From the NCBI GenBank assembly GCA_016222825.1, contig JACRQF010000024.1, positions 1,614 to 65,613 on the forward strand: 64,000 nt of DNA, read 5' to 3'. Numbering within the stretch: position 1 is the stretch's first letter; each line of letters begins with the position of its first letter. Under the pieces are notes generated by a model. That model made no database searches. It saw only the letters and a program-made list of their open reading frames with translations, and was not told the DNA's origin. Shown in pieces: positions 2,560 through 62,383 of the stretch. The position numbers were made by a program, and so were the translations under genes. Origin of the DNA: Verrucomicrobiota bacterium (GTDB lineage Bacteria > Verrucomicrobiota > Verrucomicrobiia > CAIQCK01).

Positions 2560-4173
2560 ATGATCTGTCGCTTTGCATTCTTGTTTGCTGCGTGGCTAGC
2601 CCTCGTGGGCGTCGCGTCCGCCGCCGAGCCGTCGCGGCCGAACATCGTCGTCATCCTCGCCGATGACATGGGGTTTTCGGACGCGGGTTGCTATGGCGGG
2701 GAGATCCAGACGCCGAACCTCGACCGGCTTGCGGCGAGCGGGCTGCGGTTCTCGCAGTTCTACAACTGCGCGTTATGCGGGCCGTCGCGGTCGGCGTTGA
2801 TGACGGGACTGTATCCGAGCCAGGTCGGGATGTTCAACTGGACGGGCAAGCTGAACAACCGGTGCGTGACGATGTTCGAGTTGCTCAAGCGCGCAGGCTA
2901 CAGGACGGGCGCGGTGGGCCGGCTCGACATGACGACGGCGGAGGACTGGCATGACCCATCGTGCGTGGCGCGCTACGTGGACCGGTTTCTCGGCAACGCG
3001 GGTGGCGGCGGGCCGGGGCATTACTTCAAGGCCGTGCGGACCATGAAGACCTTCATGGACGGCCAGCCGTTCACGCTGCCTGAGAACTGCTACAAGACCG
3101 ATCTCATCACCGACTTCGCGGTGAAGTTCATCGCCGAGGCGGCGACGAAGCCGCAACCGTTCTTCCTCTACGTCGCCGAATACGCGCCGCACTGGCCGCT
3201 GCACGCGAAGGAGCAGGACATGGCAAAGTATCGCGACCTCTACCGGAACCTCGGATGGGACGAGGCCCGGGTGCGACGCCACAAGCGGTTGATCGAACTA
3301 GGCCTCATCAGCAAGGATTGCCCGCTGTCGCTGCGCGACTCGCGCGCGCCAGCGTGGAAAGACGCGCCACACAAGGATTGGGAGGCCGAGCGGATGGCTG
3401 CGTTTGCGGGGCAAGTGGATTCACTCGACCAGAGCGTGGGACGCATCATGGAAGCGCTGCGGCGCGCGGGCGCGGACAAGAACACGCTGGTGCTGTTCCT
3501 CTCCGACAACGGCGCGTCGGACCAGCCGTGGCCGCGGCCGTTGGACAAGCCGGGTGAAACTTGGCGGCTCGATGGCACGCCCACGCGCGTCGGCAACACG
3601 CCGGACATTTCCCCGGGCGGACCTGACACGTTCGTGACCGCCGGCCCGGCGTGGGCCAACGTATCGAACGCGCCTTTCCGCGAACACAAGCAGACGAACT
3701 TCGAGGGCGGCATCGCGACGCCGTTGATCGCGTGGTGGCCGGGTGTCGTCAGGCAAGCCGGCGCGGTCACGCACGAACTCGGCCACATCACGGACATCAC
3801 GGCCACGTGCCTCGACGCGGCGGGCGTGGCGTATCCGAGCGAGTTCAACGGCCGCAGCGTGCTGCCGATGGAGGGCAAAAGCTTGTTGCCAGTTCTCAAG
3901 GGCGGCCAACGCGACGGGCACAAGACGCTCTGCTGGGCGACGTCCGGTTGCCGCGCCATCCGCGAGGGCCAGTGGAAGCTCGTCGCCGGGAAGAACGGGC
4001 CGTGGGAGCTTTTCAATCTCGCCACCGACCGCGCGGAGTCGCAGAATCTCGCCGAGAAGTTCCCCGACACTGTGAAGGACCTCACCGCCAAGTGGCAGCA
4101 GTGGGCAGACCGTTGCGGCGCGAAACCGCGCGCTGCTTCTCCCAAGCGTCCCGTTTCAAAAGCCAAGAAGTAA
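2560..4173 (+). CDS. Arylsulfatase (Cys-type, AtsA-like)
   Basis: Signal peptide, RPNIVVILADDMG, CGPSR (CxPxR), APHWPLH, LSDNG, EGGIATP. Confidence 0.93.
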   Translation: MICRFAFLFAAWLALVGVASAAEPSRPNIVVILADDMGFSDAGCYGGEIQTPNLDRLAASGLRFSQFYNCALCGPSRSALMTGLYPSQVGMFNWTGKLNNRCVTMFELLKRAGYRTGAVGRLDMTTAEDWHDPSCVARYVDRFLGNAGGGGPGHYFKAVRTMKTFMDGQPFTLPENCYKTDLITDFAVKFIAEAATKPQPFFLYVAEYAPHWPLHAKEQDMAKYRDLYRNLGWDEARVRRHKRLIELGLISKDCPLSLRDSRAPAWKDAPHKDWEAERMAAFAGQVDSLDQSVGRIMEALRRAGADKNTLVLFLSDNGASDQPWPRPLDKPGETWRLDGTPTRVGNTPDISPGGPDTFVTAGPAWANVSNAPFREHKQTNFEGGIATPLIAWWPGVVRQAGAVTHELGHITDITATCLDAAGVAYPSEFNGRSVLPMEGKSLLPVLKGGQRDGHKTLCWATSGCRAIREGQWKLVAGKNGPWELFNLATDRAESQNLAEKFPDTVKDLTAKWQQWADRCGAKPRAASPKRPVSKAKK

Positions 4174-27377: not shown

Positions 27378-28769
27378 TCAGCGCTTGCCCAGCAGCTCCA
27401 GCACCGCCGCAGTCATCGCGGTCACGCCGGTCTTGATCGTCGGCTCGGGCAGCGGCGCGTAGAGCGGGGAGTGCAGCGACGGCAACGGCTGGCCGCCGCG
27501 ATCCGCCTCGGCGACGCGCTTCGGGTCCGCCGAGCCGAGCCAGAACATGCAGACCGGAATCTTCTCCTTGGTGCGCCCGTAAAGGCCGAAGTCCTCCGCG
27601 CCCATCGAGGCTTTGCGCGACTTCACCGAGTCCTTGCCGAACCACGCGCCGAACGCGCGCATGAGCCGCTGGGTGAGCGGCGGGTCGTTATAGGTGGCCT
27701 TGGCGTTTTCCGAAGCGACGGTGACCTCCGGCACGCGGTCCTCCGGCAAGCCCGCCGCCAGCGCCAGGCCGCGCGTGATGCGCTTGATGGCGGCGATCTG
27801 CTGGTCGCGCACGGCGTCGGAGTAGGAGCGCAGCGTCAACTGGAGCTTCACCTCGTCGGGGATGATGTTGTGTTTCGCGCCGCCGTGGATGGAGCCGACC
27901 GTGACGACCGCAGGCTCGGTCGGCTCGATCTCGCGGCTGACGATGGTCTGCAACGCCAGCACGATCTGGGCGGCGAGGACGATGGGGTCCCTGGTCTTGT
28001 GCGGCATCGCGCCGTGGCCGCCCGCGCCATGCACGACGATGTCCACGGCGTCGGAGTTGGCGAGCGCGAAACCCTCCGTGTAGCCGATCACGCCCGCGGG
28101 CAGATCGCCGGAGACGTGCTGCGCGATGCAGAAGTCCGGCTTTGGGAACCGCGTAAACAACCCGTCGGCGAGCATCCGCCGCGCGCCGCTGACGCGCTCC
28201 TCCGCCGGCTGGCCGATGAACACGACCGTGCCCTGCCACCGGTCCTTCAACGCCGCCAGCACGCGCGCCACGCCGACGAGACAGGTCATGTGAACGTCGT
28301 GTCCGCACGCGTGCATCACGCTCACCTCGCGCCCCAGTTCGTCCTTGGTTTTCACCTGGCTCGCGTAGGGAACGCCGGTCAGCTCCTTCACCGGCAGCGC
28401 GTCCATGTCCGAGCGCACCAGCACCACCGGCCCGCTGCCGTTGCGGAGCACGGCGACGACACCGTGGCCGCCGACGTTCTCGGTGACCTCCAGCCCCGCC
28501 GCGCGGAGCTTGTCGGCGAGCTGCTTCGAGGTGCGCGCCTCGTGGAACGACATCTCCGGATGGGCGTGGAGGTCTTTGTAGAACTCGAAGAGGGAGCCAT
28601 ACTCGGCCTCCGCGCGCGCCTGCACCTGCGGCTTCGCGGCGGCGGCATCGGCGCGCGCGGCTTGCGGAGCGTCGAACAGGACGCAGACGCCCGCGCACAA
28701 TGCGAGCAGGCTGCTGTTCAGGAAATCACGACGGGAAGGTTTGTGGTTCATGGGGTTCTCCAAGTTCAT
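27378..28769 (-). CDS. Tat-exported M20D amidohydrolase (hippurate hydrolase-like)
   Basis: SRRDFL, RSDMDALP, MHACGHDVH, QPAEE, GAEDF, LHSP. Confidence 0.9.
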   Translation of the reverse strand: MNLENPMNHKPSRRDFLNSSLLALCAGVCVLFDAPQAARADAAAAKPQVQARAEAEYGSLFEFYKDLHAHPEMSFHEARTSKQLADKLRAAGLEVTENVGGHGVVAVLRNGSGPVVLVRSDMDALPVKELTGVPYASQVKTKDELGREVSVMHACGHDVHMTCLVGVARVLAALKDRWQGTVVFIGQPAEERVSGARRMLADGLFTRFPKPDFCIAQHVSGDLPAGVIGYTEGFALANSDAVDIVVHGAGGHGAMPHKTRDPIVLAAQIVLALQTIVSREIEPTEPAVVTVGSIHGGAKHNIIPDEVKLQLTLRSYSDAVRDQQIAAIKRITRGLALAAGLPEDRVPEVTVASENAKATYNDPPLTQRLMRAFGAWFGKDSVKSRKASMGAEDFGLYGRTKEKIPVCMFWLGSADPKRVAEADRGGQPLPSLHSPLYAPLPEPTIKTGVTAMTAAVLELLGKR

Positions 28770-28882: not shown

Positions 28883-28942
28883 TGTAGCTGAACGCGCCAG
28901 CGTTCAGTCGCCGCGGGCTGAACGCTGGCGCGTTCAGCTACA
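28883..28942. repeat. GTAG-type REP doublet (REPIN-like)
   Basis: Perfect 25-bp inverted repeat TGTAGCTGAACGCGCCAGCGTTCAG (28883-28907) / 28918-28942. Each arm is GTAG plus an 8-bp hairpin. Confidence 0.85.
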
Positions 28943-29049: not shown

Positions 29050-30363
29050 ATGACACAATCTTCCAACGAAACCAGCCGATACAGCCAGTGGATGGCGTTC
29101 ATCGCGGCGTTCCTGGGATGGATGTTCGACGGCGTGGAGATGGGACTGTTCCCGCTGGTGGCGACGCCGGCCATCGAGGCGATGCTCGGCCCGCAAAACC
29201 TCGCCTACAAGATGCCGTGGATCACCGGCATCACGGCGGCGTTCCTCATCGGCGCGGCGGCGGGCGGCATCCTGTTCGGCTGGCTGGGCGACCGCATCGG
29301 GCGGGTGAAGGCGATGTCGTTGAGCGTGCTGACCTATTCGATCTTCTCCGGCCTGTGCGGTTTCTCGCAAACGCCGTGGGATCTCGGCCTGCTGCGGTTC
29401 ATGGCGGCGCTGGGCATGGGCGGCGAATGGGCGTTGGGCGTGGCGCTCATCATGGAGGTCTGGCCGGCGGCGTCGCGGCCGACGCTGGCGGGATTCATTG
29501 GCGTGGCGTCGAACACCGGCTTCGTGCTCACGGGCTTGATGGGTTTGGGCCTGGCGCAGGTCATCGGCGACCTGGGCGCGATCTTGAAGGCGATCCGCGT
29601 GCCGGAGGACATCGCGAAGTCGCTGCTCGACCACAGCGGCTGGCGGCTGCTGATGTTCCTCGGCGCGACGCCGGCGCTGCTGACGTTGTTCATCCAGTTC
29701 TTCGTGCCGGAGTCCAAACGCTGGCAGCACAGCGCCGCCACGGCGACGCGGAAGAACCGGATCAGCGACATCTTCGAGCCGGGCATCGCGCGCATGACGA
29801 TCATGGGCACGATCCTCGGGGCGCTCGTGCTGCTGGGAACGTGGGGTTCGGTGCAGATGATTCCCAACTGGGCCGCCAAGCTCACCAAGGAGCCGACTGC
29901 GCGCGCGTTGTGCGTGATCTGGTGCGGAGCGGGCGCGATCGTCGCGACGCTGATGGCGGCGTGGCTGGCACAACTGACCTCGCGACGCATCTCTTACTTT
30001 GTGTTCTCGACGCTGTCGCTGGTGTCCTGCCAATACCTGTTCCGCGCCGACATCGAATACGGCAACTACTTTCTCTTCTGGGTGACGATTGTCGGCGGCA
30101 CGACGGCGAGCTTCTACGGCTGGCTGCCGCTCTATTTGCCGGAGTTGTTCCCCACGCGCTGCCGCGCCACGGGTCAAGGGTTCGCCTATAACATCGCGCG
30201 CATCGTCGCCGCCATCGGCACGATCATCACCGGCTTTGTCCTGAACATCGAGACCGCCGCTGGCTGGGCCAACCTCTGCGCCATGGTGAGCCTGGTGTAT
30301 ATCGTCGGCATGGTCTTCATCTGGTTCTGTCCGGAGACCAAGGGCAAGCCGCTGCCAGAGTAA
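29050..30363 (+). CDS. MFS transporter (NanT/MucK-like)
   Basis: GWLGDRIGR motif A, GMGGEW, ELFPTRCRATGQG, about 12 hydrophobic segments. Confidence 0.9.
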   Translation: MTQSSNETSRYSQWMAFIAAFLGWMFDGVEMGLFPLVATPAIEAMLGPQNLAYKMPWITGITAAFLIGAAAGGILFGWLGDRIGRVKAMSLSVLTYSIFSGLCGFSQTPWDLGLLRFMAALGMGGEWALGVALIMEVWPAASRPTLAGFIGVASNTGFVLTGLMGLGLAQVIGDLGAILKAIRVPEDIAKSLLDHSGWRLLMFLGATPALLTLFIQFFVPESKRWQHSAATATRKNRISDIFEPGIARMTIMGTILGALVLLGTWGSVQMIPNWAAKLTKEPTARALCVIWCGAGAIVATLMAAWLAQLTSRRISYFVFSTLSLVSCQYLFRADIEYGNYFLFWVTIVGGTTASFYGWLPLYLPELFPTRCRATGQGFAYNIARIVAAIGTIITGFVLNIETAAGWANLCAMVSLVYIVGMVFIWFCPETKGKPLPE

Positions 30364-39599: not shown

Positions 39600-40631
39600 A
39601 TGAACGCGAACACATCCAAGCAACTTCTGCTGCTCCTGACCCTGGCACTGACAACACCGTGCTCCGCGGCCGACTCGCCGGCGTTCCGGCCGGGCAAGGT
39701 CTGGCTCGACACCAACGGCAAGGCGATCAACGCCCACGGTGGCGGCATGTTGTTCCACAAGGGCGTTTACTACTGGTATGGCGAGAACAAGGAAGGGCGC
39801 ACGTGGCTGCCGGAGTCCACAAAAGATTGGGAAGGCTCCCGCGTGGATGTCACCGGCGTGCGTTGCTATTCGTCGCGGGACTTGCTCCGTTGGAAGGACG
39901 AGGGCCTCGTGTTGCGCGCCGTGCCGGACGACCCATCGCACGACCTGCATCCGTCGAAGGTCTGCGAGCGGCCGAAAGTCGTGTTCAACGCGCGGACGAA
40001 GAAGTTTGTGATGTGGATGCACATGGACAGCGAGAACTACAAGGCCGCGCGCGCCGGCGTGGCGGTGGCGGACTCGCCGACAGGGCCGTTCCGCTACATC
40101 GAGAGCGTGCGGCCCGAAGGCCAGGACAGCCGCGACCAGACGCTGTTCCTGGACGACGACGGCAAGGCTTACCGCGTCTATTCGTCCGAGAACAACGCGA
40201 CCACCTACATCTCGCTGCTCACCGACGACTACCTCAAGCACAGCGGCAAGTTCGCGCGGGTCTTCGAGGGCCGGCACATGGAAGCGCAGGTCGTCTTCAA
40301 ACACGTCGGCAAATACTGGTTCATCGCGTCGGGCTGCACCGGCTGGGCGCCGAACGCCGCGCGCTCGGCGGTCGCCGATTCGATCTGGGGGCCGTGGACC
40401 GAACTCGGCAATCCCTGCCGCGGGCCGGAAGCGGACGTCACGTTCCGCGGACAGAGCACGTTTGTGTTTCCCGTCGCCGGCCGGAAGGGCGCCTTCATCT
40501 TCATGGCCGACCGCTGGAACAAGACGGAACTCACTGATTCGCGCTATCTCTGGTTACCGCTCCAGTTCAAGGACGGCCGGCCGATTATCGAGTGGCGCGA
40601 AGAATGGAATCTGTCATTCTTCGCGCGGTGA
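39600..40631 (+). CDS. GH43 glycoside hydrolase (subfamily 24-like, exo-beta-1,3-galactanase type)
   Basis: INAHGGG, YYWYGE, ERPKV, RDQTLF, GCTGWAPN, GQSTFV, MADRW. Confidence 0.85.
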   Translation: MNANTSKQLLLLLTLALTTPCSAADSPAFRPGKVWLDTNGKAINAHGGGMLFHKGVYYWYGENKEGRTWLPESTKDWEGSRVDVTGVRCYSSRDLLRWKDEGLVLRAVPDDPSHDLHPSKVCERPKVVFNARTKKFVMWMHMDSENYKAARAGVAVADSPTGPFRYIESVRPEGQDSRDQTLFLDDDGKAYRVYSSENNATTYISLLTDDYLKHSGKFARVFEGRHMEAQVVFKHVGKYWFIASGCTGWAPNAARSAVADSIWGPWTELGNPCRGPEADVTFRGQSTFVFPVAGRKGAFIFMADRWNKTELTDSRYLWLPLQFKDGRPIIEWREEWNLSFFAR

Positions 40632-40645
40632 ACCGGAACAAACAC

Positions 40646-43438
40646 ATGAACACACGCTTCCTGACACACTTCGCCGTTTGCGGCCTGCTCCACGTCGCCG
40701 CCATCGCTGTTTCCGCCGCAGCGGCCCGGCCGAACATTCTCGTCATCCTCTCCGACGACATGGGGTTCTCCGACCTTGGCTGCTACGGCGGCGAGATCCA
40801 GACGCCGACGCTCGACGCGCTCGCGGCGGGCGGAGTCCGGTTCACGCAGTTCTACAACACCGCGCGCTGCTGCCCGACGCGCGCGTCGCTGATCACCGGC
40901 CTTTACCCGCATCAGGCCGGCATGGGCCACATGACCAGCACGCGCAGCGAACTGCCGGGCTACCGGGGCGACCTGCGCCGTGACACGCCGACCATCGCCG
41001 AGCAACTCAAGCCCGCCGGTTACGCCACCTACGCCTGCGGCAAGTGGCACGTCGCCACGCACGAGCGCAAGCCGGACGAGCCGAATTACAACTGGCCGCT
41101 TCAACGCGGCTTCGACCGCTTTTACGGGACGATCACGGGCGGCGGGAACTTCTACGACCCGACCACGCTCTGCCGTGGCAACAAGTTCATCACACCGGAG
41201 AACGACCCGGAGTATCGGCCGAAGAAGTTCTACTACACCGACGCGATCAGCGACAACGCGGTGAAGTTCCTCAATGAGCACGCCACCCAGCGCGCGGGCC
41301 AGCCGTTCTTCTGCTACGTCGCCTACACCGCGGCGCACTGGCCAATGCACGCGCTGCCGGAGGACATCGCCAAGTATCGCGGCAAATACGACGCTGGCTA
41401 CGAGCCGTTCCGGGCGGCGCGATTTGCGCGAACGAAGCAACTCGGCCTCGTGAGCGCGAACTGGCAAATGACACCGCAGGCCGAGGACTGGGCGACGGTG
41501 CAGGACAGGGCGTGGGAGGCGCGTTGCATGGAGGTCTATGCTGCGATGGTGGACCGCATGGACCAGGGCATCGGCCGCATCGTCGCGGAGCTGAAGCGGC
41601 ACGGGCAGTTCGACAACACCCTCATCTTCTTCCTCCAGGACAACGGCGCGTGCGCCGAGATGACCGGCCGCCAATCCAACGCCGGGCAGATCAAGACTGT
41701 GAACTACAAGCCGTTCGGCCCCGACGATCTCCAGCCGCAGATCGTGCCGCCGATGCAGACACGCGATGGCCGGCCCGTGCGCACCGGCCCCGGCGTCATG
41801 CCCGGCCCGGAGGACACCTACATCGCCTACGGCCGCGGCTGGGCCAACGTCTCGAACACGCCGTTCCGCGAATACAAGCACTGGGTCCACGAAGGCGGCA
41901 TCTCCACACCGCTCATCGCGCACTGGCCCACCGGCATCGCCGCGTCGCAGCGCAACCAACTCGTCCACACGCCGGGACACCTTATTGATATAGCGGCGAC
42001 GTGCGTGGATGTAGCCGCGTCACTCCGTGACGCGAATCGTCATAATCAGGGAAGCGCGTCACGGAGTGACGCGGCTACTTTGGAAGGCGTCAGCTTGCGA
42101 CCTGCGTTCGAGGGCAAGCCCATCACGCGGCAGCAGCCGCTCTTTTGGGAGCACGAGCGCAACCGCGCCATCCGCGATGGCAAATGGAAGCTCGTCGCAA
42201 AAGGTGCCGACGGCCCGTGGGAACTCTACGACATGGAAGCCGACCGCACCGAGATGCACGACCTCGCCACCGCGCAGCCCGAGCGCGTCAAGGAACTGGC
42301 CGCGCAATGGGACGCGTGGGCCAAGCGCGCGAACGTCGTGCCATATCCCGAACTGAAAAAGCCGCAGGCCAAGAAAACCGTCGGCGGCGCGCCCGGTCGC
42401 TGGCCCGCCAAGAAGGCCAACGCGTGGCTCGACAAGCACGGCTGGCTGCTCGGCTGCAACTACGCGCCGAGCACCGCCATCAACCAACTGGAGATGTTTC
42501 AAGCCGACACGTTCGACCTTGCCACCAACGACCGCGAACTGGGATGGGCCGCGTCGCTCGGTTTCAACTCCGTGCGCGTGTTCCTGCACCACCTGCTGTG
42601 GGAGCAGGATCCGAAGGGTTTCCTCGACCGGCTCGACAAGTTCCTCGCCGTCGCCGACAAGCACGGCATCGGCGTCATGTTCGTGCTGTTCGATTCGTGT
42701 TGGGACCCCTTCCCGAAGCTCGGCAAGCAGCGCGAGCCGAAGCCCGGCCTCCACAACTCCGGCTGGGTGCAGTCGCCCGGCGCCGACGTGCTCAAGGACC
42801 CGTCGCGCCACGCCGCGCTGCGCGATTACGTCGTCGGCGTCGTCAGCCGCTTCCGCGACGACCGGCGCGTGCAGGTCTGGGACATCTGGAACGAGCCGAA
42901 CAACACCAACGACAATTCCTACGGCGCTCAGGAGCCGAAGGACAAAGCCGGTTTCGTGCGGCCGTTGCTGACGAAGGCGTTCGCGTGGGCGCGCGAGGCC
43001 CGGCCGACGCAACCGCTCACCAGCGGCGTCTGGCAGGGCAACTGGGCCGACGCGGGCAAGCTGCGGCCGATGGAGGTCATCCAGATCGAGAACTCCGACA
43101 TCATCAGCTTCCACAACTACGGCAAGCTCGACGAACTCAAGCAGTGCGTCGAAAACCTGCGCCGCCACAACCGGCCGATCCTCTGCACCGAATACATGTC
43201 GCGCGGCAACGGCAGCTTCTTTGAGCCGCACCTCGGCTTCATGAAAGAGCAGCGCGTCGCGGCCTACAACTGGGGCCTCGTCTCCGGCAAGACGCAGACG
43301 ATCTACCCGTGGGACAGTTGGAAAAAGAGCTACATCGGCGAGCCGCCGCTCTGGTTCCACGACATCTTCCGCCCCGACGGCAAGCCGTATCGCCCGGAAG
43401 AAGCCGCCTACATCCGCAAACTCACCGGCAAGAACTGA
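40646..43438 (+). CDS. Arylsulfatase fused to C-terminal GH5-like glycoside hydrolase
   Basis: CCPTR, GKWH, QDNG, EGGISTP, followed by NYAPSTAINQLEM..WDIWNEP..CTEY..YNWG. Confidence 0.88.
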   Translation: MNTRFLTHFAVCGLLHVAAIAVSAAAARPNILVILSDDMGFSDLGCYGGEIQTPTLDALAAGGVRFTQFYNTARCCPTRASLITGLYPHQAGMGHMTSTRSELPGYRGDLRRDTPTIAEQLKPAGYATYACGKWHVATHERKPDEPNYNWPLQRGFDRFYGTITGGGNFYDPTTLCRGNKFITPENDPEYRPKKFYYTDAISDNAVKFLNEHATQRAGQPFFCYVAYTAAHWPMHALPEDIAKYRGKYDAGYEPFRAARFARTKQLGLVSANWQMTPQAEDWATVQDRAWEARCMEVYAAMVDRMDQGIGRIVAELKRHGQFDNTLIFFLQDNGACAEMTGRQSNAGQIKTVNYKPFGPDDLQPQIVPPMQTRDGRPVRTGPGVMPGPEDTYIAYGRGWANVSNTPFREYKHWVHEGGISTPLIAHWPTGIAASQRNQLVHTPGHLIDIAATCVDVAASLRDANRHNQGSASRSDAATLEGVSLRPAFEGKPITRQQPLFWEHERNRAIRDGKWKLVAKGADGPWELYDMEADRTEMHDLATAQPERVKELAAQWDAWAKRANVVPYPELKKPQAKKTVGGAPGRWPAKKANAWLDKHGWLLGCNYAPSTAINQLEMFQADTFDLATNDRELGWAASLGFNSVRVFLHHLLWEQDPKGFLDRLDKFLAVADKHGIGVMFVLFDSCWDPFPKLGKQREPKPGLHNSGWVQSPGADVLKDPSRHAALRDYVVGVVSRFRDDRRVQVWDIWNEPNNTNDNSYGAQEPKDKAGFVRPLLTKAFAWAREARPTQPLTSGVWQGNWADAGKLRPMEVIQIENSDIISFHNYGKLDELKQCVENLRRHNRPILCTEYMSRGNGSFFEPHLGFMKEQRVAAYNWGLVSGKTQTIYPWDSWKKSYIGEPPLWFHDIFRPDGKPYRPEEAAYIRKLTGKN
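42011..42078. repeat. GTAG-type REP doublet inside the sulfatase reading frame
   Basis: Perfect 24-bp inverted repeat GTAGCCGCGTCACTCCGTGACGCG (42011-42034) / 42055-42078 with a 20-nt spacer. Translated as VAASLRDANRHNQGSASRSDAAT. Confidence 0.88.
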
Positions 43439-61930: not shown

Positions 61931-62170
61931 GCCCCTTCCGGCGAGGGGTTCGCCCCCTGGCGCAGGTGCCGCGCCCCTTCCCAAAAGGGGCGTGCCCCTC
62001 GCCGCAACTATGGCGCCCCTTCTGAAAAGGGGCGCGCCCCTTGCCGCAGATTCTTCGCCCCTTTTCGCGGGGGATGCGCCCCCCGGCGCAGATGTTTCGC
62101 CCCTTGGCGCGAGGGGTGCGCCCCTCGGCGCAGGTGCTGCGCCCCTTTTCAAAAGGGGCGCGCCCCCTGA
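61931..62170. repeat. 21-bp tandem array with 42-bp higher-order period
   Basis: GCCCC recurs exactly every 21 nt from 61931 to 62162 (11 full units plus a partial one). Two degenerate units lie upstream. Confidence 0.9.
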
Positions 62171-62176
62171 CGCTCC

Positions 62177-62383
62177 AAATACGCCGTTTAGGGCGGTATT
62201 TCACACGTTTCGTAGCCGCCGACGTGAGGAGGCCGAAAGGCTGTGTCTGGCAACGCGTCCGCCTATCCATGAACCTCAGGTTCATGGCCCGGACGCGCCA
62301 ACGCCGAGTTGGTGGAGTTCTCCTTACGTCGGCGGCTACAGCTTGTCGGCGTTTCGTGCAGCGTGTGAAATACGCCGTTTAGG
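62177..62383. repeat. Nested composite palindromic element
   Basis: GTAGCCGCCGACGT(G/A)AGGAG inverted pair (62212-62231 / 62320-62339) encloses CCATGAACCT-C-AGGTTCATGG. Outer GTATTTCACACG / CGTGTGAAATAC pair. 16-bp direct repeats at 62177 and 62368. Confidence 0.8.

Follow-up and report, generated by a model that had tools for sequence, protein, structure and literature searches.

The window analysed here, 64,000 nucleotides of contig JACRQF010000024.1 from the metagenome-assembled genome (MAG) of a groundwater verrucomicrobium, carries at 42011–42078 a 68-nt palindrome which lies in frame within a sulfatase gene. This palindrome is identified as a REPIN, that is, a doublet of inverted repetitive extragenic palindromic (REP) sequences, of a GTAG family linked to a REP-associated tyrosine transposase (RAYT). 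With a probability of roughly 0.77, a copy mobilised by a RAYT inserted into a loop of the sulfatase and stayed there, most likely as a tolerated passenger, filtered for reading frame, rather than as an adaptation.

The palindrome and its host gene

The palindrome consists of two 24-bp arms, GTAGCCGCGTCACTCCGTGACGCG and its exact reverse complement (100% complementary), separated by the 20-nt spacer AATCGTCATAATCAGGGAAG. It had been described, from the letters alone, as a perfect GTAG inverted repeat with a spacer of this length, and direct reading of the sequence bore out every detail. Each arm also folds by itself into an 8-bp hairpin with a TCC loop, the unit GTAG-C-CGCGTCAC-TCC-GTGACGCG being present twice. 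An exact palindrome of this kind is not expected by chance; none of 100 dinucleotide-preserving shuffles gave a match to the inverted repeat within 3 mismatches. In the window the 24-mer is found only as these two arms, forming one doublet.

The element is contained in a single uninterrupted open reading frame (ORF) of 948 codons (40592–43438, plus strand), the probable start of the gene being M19 at 40646, in agreement with the length of its orthologs. It begins on a codon boundary (42011 − 40592 = 1419 = 473 codons) and specifies VAASLRDANRHNQGSASRSDAAT between TCVD and LEG, at residues 474–496 of the ORF or 456–478 counted from M19; on both the boundary and the flanking residues the translated ORF agrees with the original prediction. 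Conservation of the frame suggests that these 23 residues are translated.

The host protein matches the Pfam family Sulfatase (PF00884, E=1.4e-62), and its CCPTR (CxPxR) motif and the invariant residues are kept. Its closest PDB relatives by sequence and by fold are 7ALL and the arylsulfatase of P. aeruginosa (1HDH); against these two, its AlphaFold model gave template modelling (TM) scores of 0.72–0.84, the sulfatase (alkaline-phosphatase-like) fold being kept. The ratio of nonsynonymous to synonymous divergence (dN/dS) relative to the ortholog P0001 is 0.14 in both halves of the gene, with dS ~0.4. The intact ORF, the Pfam match and the dN/dS ratio uphold the earlier claim that the element lies in frame within a sulfatase. 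In the model (predicted TM score 0.88) the insert separates a helix from a strand region, both modelled with confidence; the predicted local distance difference test score is below 50 at residues 461–475 and 86 and 96 in the flanking blocks. The model, the indel variability of the site and its position in the solved relatives are consistent with a surface loop, in which the insert would be exposed and harmless. The site lies inside the C-terminal subdomain of the sulfatase, ~90 residues before the glycoside hydrolase part, and not at the domain junction.

Seven full-length orthologs (P0001 and six others), 88–91% identical to the host protein, lack the element and carry a short loop instead. 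In all seven this loop is L-AGR[AT]G[STK]TP, 9 residues encoded by 27 nt, against 69 nt in the window. The window DNA retains no recognisable trace of these 27 nt, and the net change is +42 nt. The GH43-sulfatase-FAD oxidoreductase neighbourhood, checked for P0001 (90% identical), is the same there. In the wider family the loop reads V-AGAxYPAExxGxxIxP and varies in length, with alignment indels exactly at this site; a paralog at 2560–4173 of the window (42% identical) carries AAGVAYPSEFNGRSVLP at the aligned place, confirming by alignment the different loop that had been reported for it. When the ortholog loop was compared with the REPIN as a possible remnant of it, no significant similarity was found, 20% of random gene windows scoring as high. 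A distance tree placed the window sequence among the orthologs, next to P0001, in a near-polytomy. Since the orthologs are without the element, no remnant similarity is seen and the tree places the window inside the group, the element is most simply a derived gain which replaced the resident loop; the earlier proposal that the loop was replaced, not merely lengthened, is thus supported by seven of seven orthologs. The insertion was probably recent, judging by arms that are still perfect despite the dS of ~0.4 to the ortholog. At the same loop the protein P0002 carries a 15-residue duplication-like insert (AGAKYPAVAGEFLDI + AGAKYPAEFHGQ), aligned to window residues 474–496, so the site accepts indels of other origins too.

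Independent contigs from three groundwater metagenome runs matched the window with 0 differences over 41933–42400, 41947–42400 and 41976–42256. In one of these runs the ortholog form without the element is present as well, at higher depth. The same arms, with other spacers and flanks, stand in at least 4 further contigs of these samples, at similar depth, and the copies differ mainly in the spacer. The 24-mer is therefore not unique to the sulfatase in these samples, and the segment is supported by exact matches in all three runs.

The REP family and its copies in other genes

The exact 24-mer was found in 67 stretches from ~25 genomes, labelled by their submitters as Verrucomicrobia, Planctomycetes and relatives; related genomes had up to 12 such stretches each. 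It occurs as a single 29-nt hairpin, GTAGCCGCGTCAC-TCC-GTGACGCGGCTAC, as doublets with spacers of 13–22 nt, mostly 16–20 nt (the Verrucomicrobia type, as in the window), and, in what may be called the Planctomycetes type, as doublets whose spacer measures 5 nt and whose second arm differs slightly.

A phmmer search with the E. coli RayT identified, in the stretch L020, a 222-aa ORF (1518–2198; phmmer E=0.0055; Pfam Y1_Tnp, E=6e-5) bearing HVH and YIADNP motifs, with an exact doublet on both sides of it (1408–1473 and 2182–2247). The frame of this RAYT runs into the downstream REPIN, ending at a TGA within the first REP arm, and the spacers of the two flanking doublets are reverse complements of each other. 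Homologs of this transposase (34–57% identical) occur across the Planctomycetes-Verrucomicrobia-Chlamydiae (PVC) group; at about half of the RAYT loci examined, the flanking REPs are of the GTAG type with a 7–9-bp stem and usually a TCC loop, the stem sequence being lineage-specific. Because of this REP/RAYT ("REPtron") arrangement in L020 and PVC relatives, the palindrome of the window is read as a REPIN. The GTAG head, the inverted REPs and the identical doublet around a RAYT gene in another genome likewise sustain its earlier designation as a REP doublet. In the source genome the element was presumably mobilised by a RAYT.

Two other origins were considered and rejected. A miniature inverted-repeat transposable element derived from an insertion sequence was discarded on the flanks GGAT|...|TTTGG, which show no target-site duplication. 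In L004 and L009, REPs of one orientation stand in pairs with 1.8 kb between them, which had suggested an IS200/IS605-type element; the genes they enclose are ordinary, namely a solute symporter gene and a DUF1501-like gene, with no transposase. In L055 (1658–1783), exact arms lie 78 nt apart and the interval holds REPs of another family with the same build (GTCGTCACGC-TCC-GCGTGACG), which indicates that such elements are nested.

Copies within genes deserve further attention. A doublet was scored as lying in a gene when an open frame ran through it, when the ORF extended for at least 120 nt in either direction, and when both flanks showed an excess of GC3 over GC2 (G+C content at third and second codon positions) in that frame. 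On this score 21 of the 49 sampled doublets (43%) are in frame in coding sequence. Since approximately nine tenths of a bacterial genome is coding, this fraction does not imply a preference for genes; it shows a tolerance of doublets in genes far above that of classical REPs. The lengths of the in-gene doublets, divided by three, leave a remainder of 2 in 19 cases, of 1 in two and of 0 in none, as against 11, 9 and 8 for doublets outside genes. The commonest sizes are 53 and 68 nt which, with one base added, keep the frame.

The arm is open only as GTA GCC GCG TCA CTC CGT GAC GCG (VAASLRDA), its other two frames being closed by G TAG and ...CCG TGA; in the inverted arm one frame is closed (GAG TGA) and two are open. 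Apart from its spacer the element is its own reverse complement, hence the same rule holds on either strand. Since the arm has a single stop-free frame, in-gene doublets always lie in the same frames, and their peptides always read V[AD][AG]SLRD... followed by ASRSDAAT or, rarely, RHGVTRL. Translation predicts this constraint on length modulo three; removal of the element from the message, or its bypassing, would give no reason to expect it. The original prediction, that mobile palindromes are making new protein sequence, is borne out to the extent that the same element occurs in the same frames in many unrelated proteins (Table 1), their translation being probable from the frame. A 46-residue tandem query of the REPIN peptide against a collection of 5.8 billion proteins gave 8 word-sharing candidates, none of them scoring. 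The 986-residue host ORF of L008 had no Pfam hit. In the kinase of L044 the insert follows the DFG motif, a position which we take to be the activation segment.

The gene for PurL offers a series in time. A REPIN occupies one variable linker of this protein in three species; among related PurL proteins, that of L074 retains only a decayed second arm and that of L075 only a decayed first arm, and at the same site in L076 there is a REP of a different GTAG family (GTAGGCCGGTTTTCCCAACCGGC...). The linker is thus one site of repeated or successive REP occupation. Decay proceeds by point changes and deletions, through which the palindrome is lost and the peptide region stays. This series indicates that REPIN-coded segments persist through speciation, lose their palindrome and become ordinary loop sequence. 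Beside the PurL insert, 6–12 residues of the outgroup loop are missing, and an extra loss in the PurL of L047 is an 18-nt deletion between AAA repeats. Loss of native residues beside inserts recurs, and may have come at integration or later.

Two further sets of copies were noted. In two genomes the gene for histidinol-phosphate aminotransferase contains one arm alone, in frame and as the exact 24-mer (L021, 4468–4491; L040, 3112–3135), reading ...NENPYPPSP[KR]VAASLRDA[IV]RDGSPLRLYPDP with no obvious change in length, as if native codons had been overwritten. Orthologous HZS_alpha-domain proteins of two Verrucomicrobia MAGs (L051, 5345–5409; L056, 3043–3110) share the position of a doublet, but its spacers, 17 and 20 nt long, are unrelated; this points to either an old shared insertion with spacer turnover or independent hits.

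The window contains a second GTAG REPIN, of another family, at 28885–28941: GTAGC-TGAACGC-GCCA-GCGTTCA ... and a perfect inverted copy, with 25-nt arms (the flanking T/A pair counted) 10 nt apart. It is extragenic, as is classical for REPs, between the ORFs 27378–28769 (minus strand) and 29050–30363 (plus strand), and no copies of it were found in the fetched loci. With it, the REP families of the source genome number at least two. At 61936–62169 lies a cluster of GGGGCG/CGCCCC-type palindromes, and adjacent to it, at 62212–62339, a 128-nt element with 20-nt inverted ends GTAGCCGCCGACG... (95% complementary) and direct copies of AAATACGCCGTTTAGG on either side; these may be further small mobile repeats.

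Table 1. Parts of the element, its host gene, and genes with in-frame copies in other genomes
Feature	Location	Strand	Description
Host gene	40646..43438	+	S1 sulfatase, secreted, with a cellulase-like glycoside hydrolase domain fused at its C-terminal end (Pfam, orthologs)
REP arm 1	42011..42034	+	GTAG head, C, hairpin CGCGTCAC-TCC-GTGACGCG; read as VAASLRDA
Spacer	42035..42054	+	20 nt, A+T-richer, AATCGTCATAATCAGGGAAG; read as NRHNQG + part of S
REP arm 2	42055..42078	-	Exact inverted copy of arm 1; + strand second frame = (S)ASRSDAA + 2 bases of T
Element-derived coding	42011..42079	+	23 codons, VAASLRDANRHNQGSASRSDAAT
PurL	three genomes		Pfam domains on both sides of insert
Threonyl-tRNA synthetase (ThrRS)	L036		Truncated TGS match before insert, further domains after
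Ser/Thr kinase (Pkinase)	L044		Pfam domain spans insert; insert just after DFG motif
PfkB kinase	L024		Pfam domain spans insert
FGE-sulfatase/BNR protein	L025		Pfam domains on both sides
ThuA-like protein	L048		Pfam domain spans insert
HZS_alpha-domain protein	L051		Pfam domain only after insert
PSCyt/PSD1 protein	L053		Pfam domains on both sides

Origin and role of the element

The history proposed for the sulfatase is as follows. The element is made up of two inverted GTAG-type REP units of a family widespread in Planctomycetes and Verrucomicrobia, which a RAYT (Y1/HUH) transposase would mobilise. One REPIN copy would have entered the variable loop after the "DIAATCVD" helix and displaced the 9-residue loop seen in the orthologs. 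Its survival would have depended on the arm being entered in the sole stop-free frame (GTA GCC GCG ... = VAASLRDA), on the 20-nt spacer setting the second arm in an open frame (ASRSDAAT), and on a net change in length, relative to the orthologs, that was a multiple of three (+42 nt). The product would be a sulfatase with a hydrophilic, probably disordered loop of 23 residues.

Several observations weigh against this history. A clean insertion would shift the frame, since GTAG...CTAC is 68 nt, leaving a remainder of 2 when divided by three. Either the mobile unit would have one more base, with 27 nt lost, or insertion and deletion would have been separate events with a pseudogene stage between them. 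The nearest element-free sequence is ~10% diverged, too distant to fix the loop that preceded the insertion. In the 64-kb window there is a single doublet of this family and no RAYT was found. The RNA runs that were found hold only 4–6% of the sequence words, and none is from the source organism. Finally, the public protein collection holds only the hydrolase half of the host protein (P0125, 366 aa, window 42338–43438, from an internal GTG start), and an exact look-up there of the 930-residue window protein did not find it; the deposited annotation thus seems to lack a single gene for the REPIN-bearing fusion.

This last point, together with the origin of the sequence in a MAG and the repetitive nature of the element, would also suit a repeat-induced misjoin of the assembly or a dead gene in which the sulfatase half is a pseudogene. 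Independent unitig assemblies from the three runs have identical junctions on both sides, both flanks continue the gene in register with the orthologs, and an uninterrupted ORF with its CxPxR motif and invariant residues kept and a dN/dS of 0.14 in both halves speaks against a pseudogene, all of which makes either artefact or decay very improbable indeed. Scarcely credible is an invertible switch within the gene, in which the 24-bp repeats would flip the spacer; intragenic invertons as such have been described (bioRxiv 10.1101/2023.03.11.532203). The repeats do lie inverted inside a gene, and the reverse complement of AATCGTCATAATCAGGGAAG would read CTT CCC TGA, a stop that truncates the protein and turns the gene off. 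Only the forward form with sulfatase flanks is seen in the contigs of the three runs, contigs being prone to lose rare variants, and the REP family of the arms is linked to RAYTs. A spacer of 20 nt is, moreover, very short for inversion by a recombinase.

A role at the level of RNA would have the stem in the message slow the ribosomes, or offer a cleavage site for a double-strand RNase, and so tune expression or stability. The predicted transcript does fold into a very stable 24-bp stem (minimum free energy −58.3 kcal/mol, z = −8.8), and the arms have remained perfect while the flanking synonymous sites diverged from the ortholog. A recent insertion explains perfect arms equally well, the same element stands at unrelated positions in unrelated genes, and in PurL the palindrome is what is lost and the peptide region what is retained. 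The terminator scan did not flag the element, which is not terminator-like; Rfam gave no family above threshold for it, only generic miRNA hairpins below threshold; and the site is off the domain boundary. Retention for such a function is accordingly highly doubtful. Quite improbable, too, is the reverse history, by which the clade's common ancestor acquired the REPIN and its later loss left the short ortholog loop as a scar. At 8–9 residues that loop is short for its family, nearly all other members having a longer one (~17 residues in the wider family), the near-polytomy would allow the window sequence to be sister to all others, and partial deletion of a REPIN to short remnants is known from PurL (L074, L075). 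The ortholog loop DNA, however, is no closer to the REPIN than random gene windows are, both arms in the window equal the master sequence of the family despite the dS of ~0.4, and the window groups with P0001 inside the clade.

A wider and unlikely claim is that this REP family is made to live in genes and remodels the loops of proteins throughout the PVC superphylum. For it speak a master copy with exactly one stop-free frame in either orientation, commonest sizes that keep the frame, the ~40% of sampled doublets in frame in genes, hosts that include the essential PurL and ThrRS, the same 24-mer in two phyla, and integration accompanied by loss of the resident loop (27 nt giving way to 69 in the sulfatase, ~6–12 residues in PurL). 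If true, the loss of the loop with integration would amount to a replacement-type integration not described for REPINs.

With the tolerated passenger as the preferred explanation, the comparison with element-free orthologs displays a selfish palindrome becoming what are probably 23 residues of an enzyme, and PurL displays the decay of such segments to ordinary-looking loops; from the two cases together, REPs may be the source of part of the loop diversity of PVC proteins. Gene callers can be confused by inserts of this kind, as with the half of the host gene in the public set, and homology-based loop modelling can be misled. The basic phenomenon of intragenic REP copies is already known, and the single sulfatase case would not surprise a specialist; the leads for REPIN biology are the high in-gene fraction, the identical REP in two phyla and the pattern of replacement.

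Comparison with known systems

Rickettsia palindromic elements (RPEs) are longer than the element described here (~100–150 bp) and known only from Rickettsia, and we know of no link between them and a RAYT. The likeness lies in a palindromic repeat found in frame in many unrelated genes, essential ones included, and in an added peptide segment tolerated by the fold (Ogata et al. 2000); the two are functional analogues and probably not one family. The short RPE-4 and RPE-6 are of the CGTC-tagged class, not GTAG (PMC3733652).

With REPIN-RAYT systems (Bertels and Rainey 2011, PMC3116915; Nunvar et al. 2010) the element shares inverted REPs with a short spacer that make one long hairpin, a doublet which, spacer included, is the repeated unit, and one Y1/HUH transposase gene with these REPs on either side. 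Classical REPINs, those of Pseudomonas and E. coli, only rarely lie inside genes (PMC3733652), unlike the present doublets with ~40% of those sampled in frame in genes. The extragenic location by which REPs are defined does not hold for the sulfatase element, which lies in an intact ORF; intragenic exceptions are on record (PMC3733652).

The closest precedent is that of Di Nocera, De Gregorio and Rocco 2013 (BMC Genomics 14:522, PMC3733652), who sorted REPs into GTAG and CGTC superfamilies. The sections of that article covered here describe GTAG repeats in the PVC superphylum, linked to RAYTs as "REPtrons", with GTAG ends that sometimes supply stop codons, and intragenic GTAG REP dimers lying wholly inside ORFs, adding 20–30 residues and most numerous in Opitutus terrae (Verrucomicrobia). 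The original prediction had set in-frame palindromes down to RPEs and held REPINs to be normally intergenic; this background was incomplete, in-frame GTAG dimers having been published in 2013, and the present element is less novel than first assumed. Like those dimers, the sulfatase element consists of GTAG-tagged stem-loops placed tail-to-tail inside the ORF of a known protein, in a PVC member and with a RAYT link. It differs in REP sequence and host gene, the O. terrae peptides being VGPALAAG, GTGVPPV and similar; the SLRD motif is absent from Additional file 3 of PMC3733652, and the VAASLRDA...ASRSDAAT peptide is not among the entries there. The RAYT ORF of L020 also departs from that description, since it reads through the GTAG in another frame before it stops within the REP arm. 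What is added, relative to the same sections of PMC3733652, is this REP family, its host gene, the loop replacement traced through orthologs, the modulo-three rule for in-gene doublets and the occurrence of one 24-mer in two phyla.

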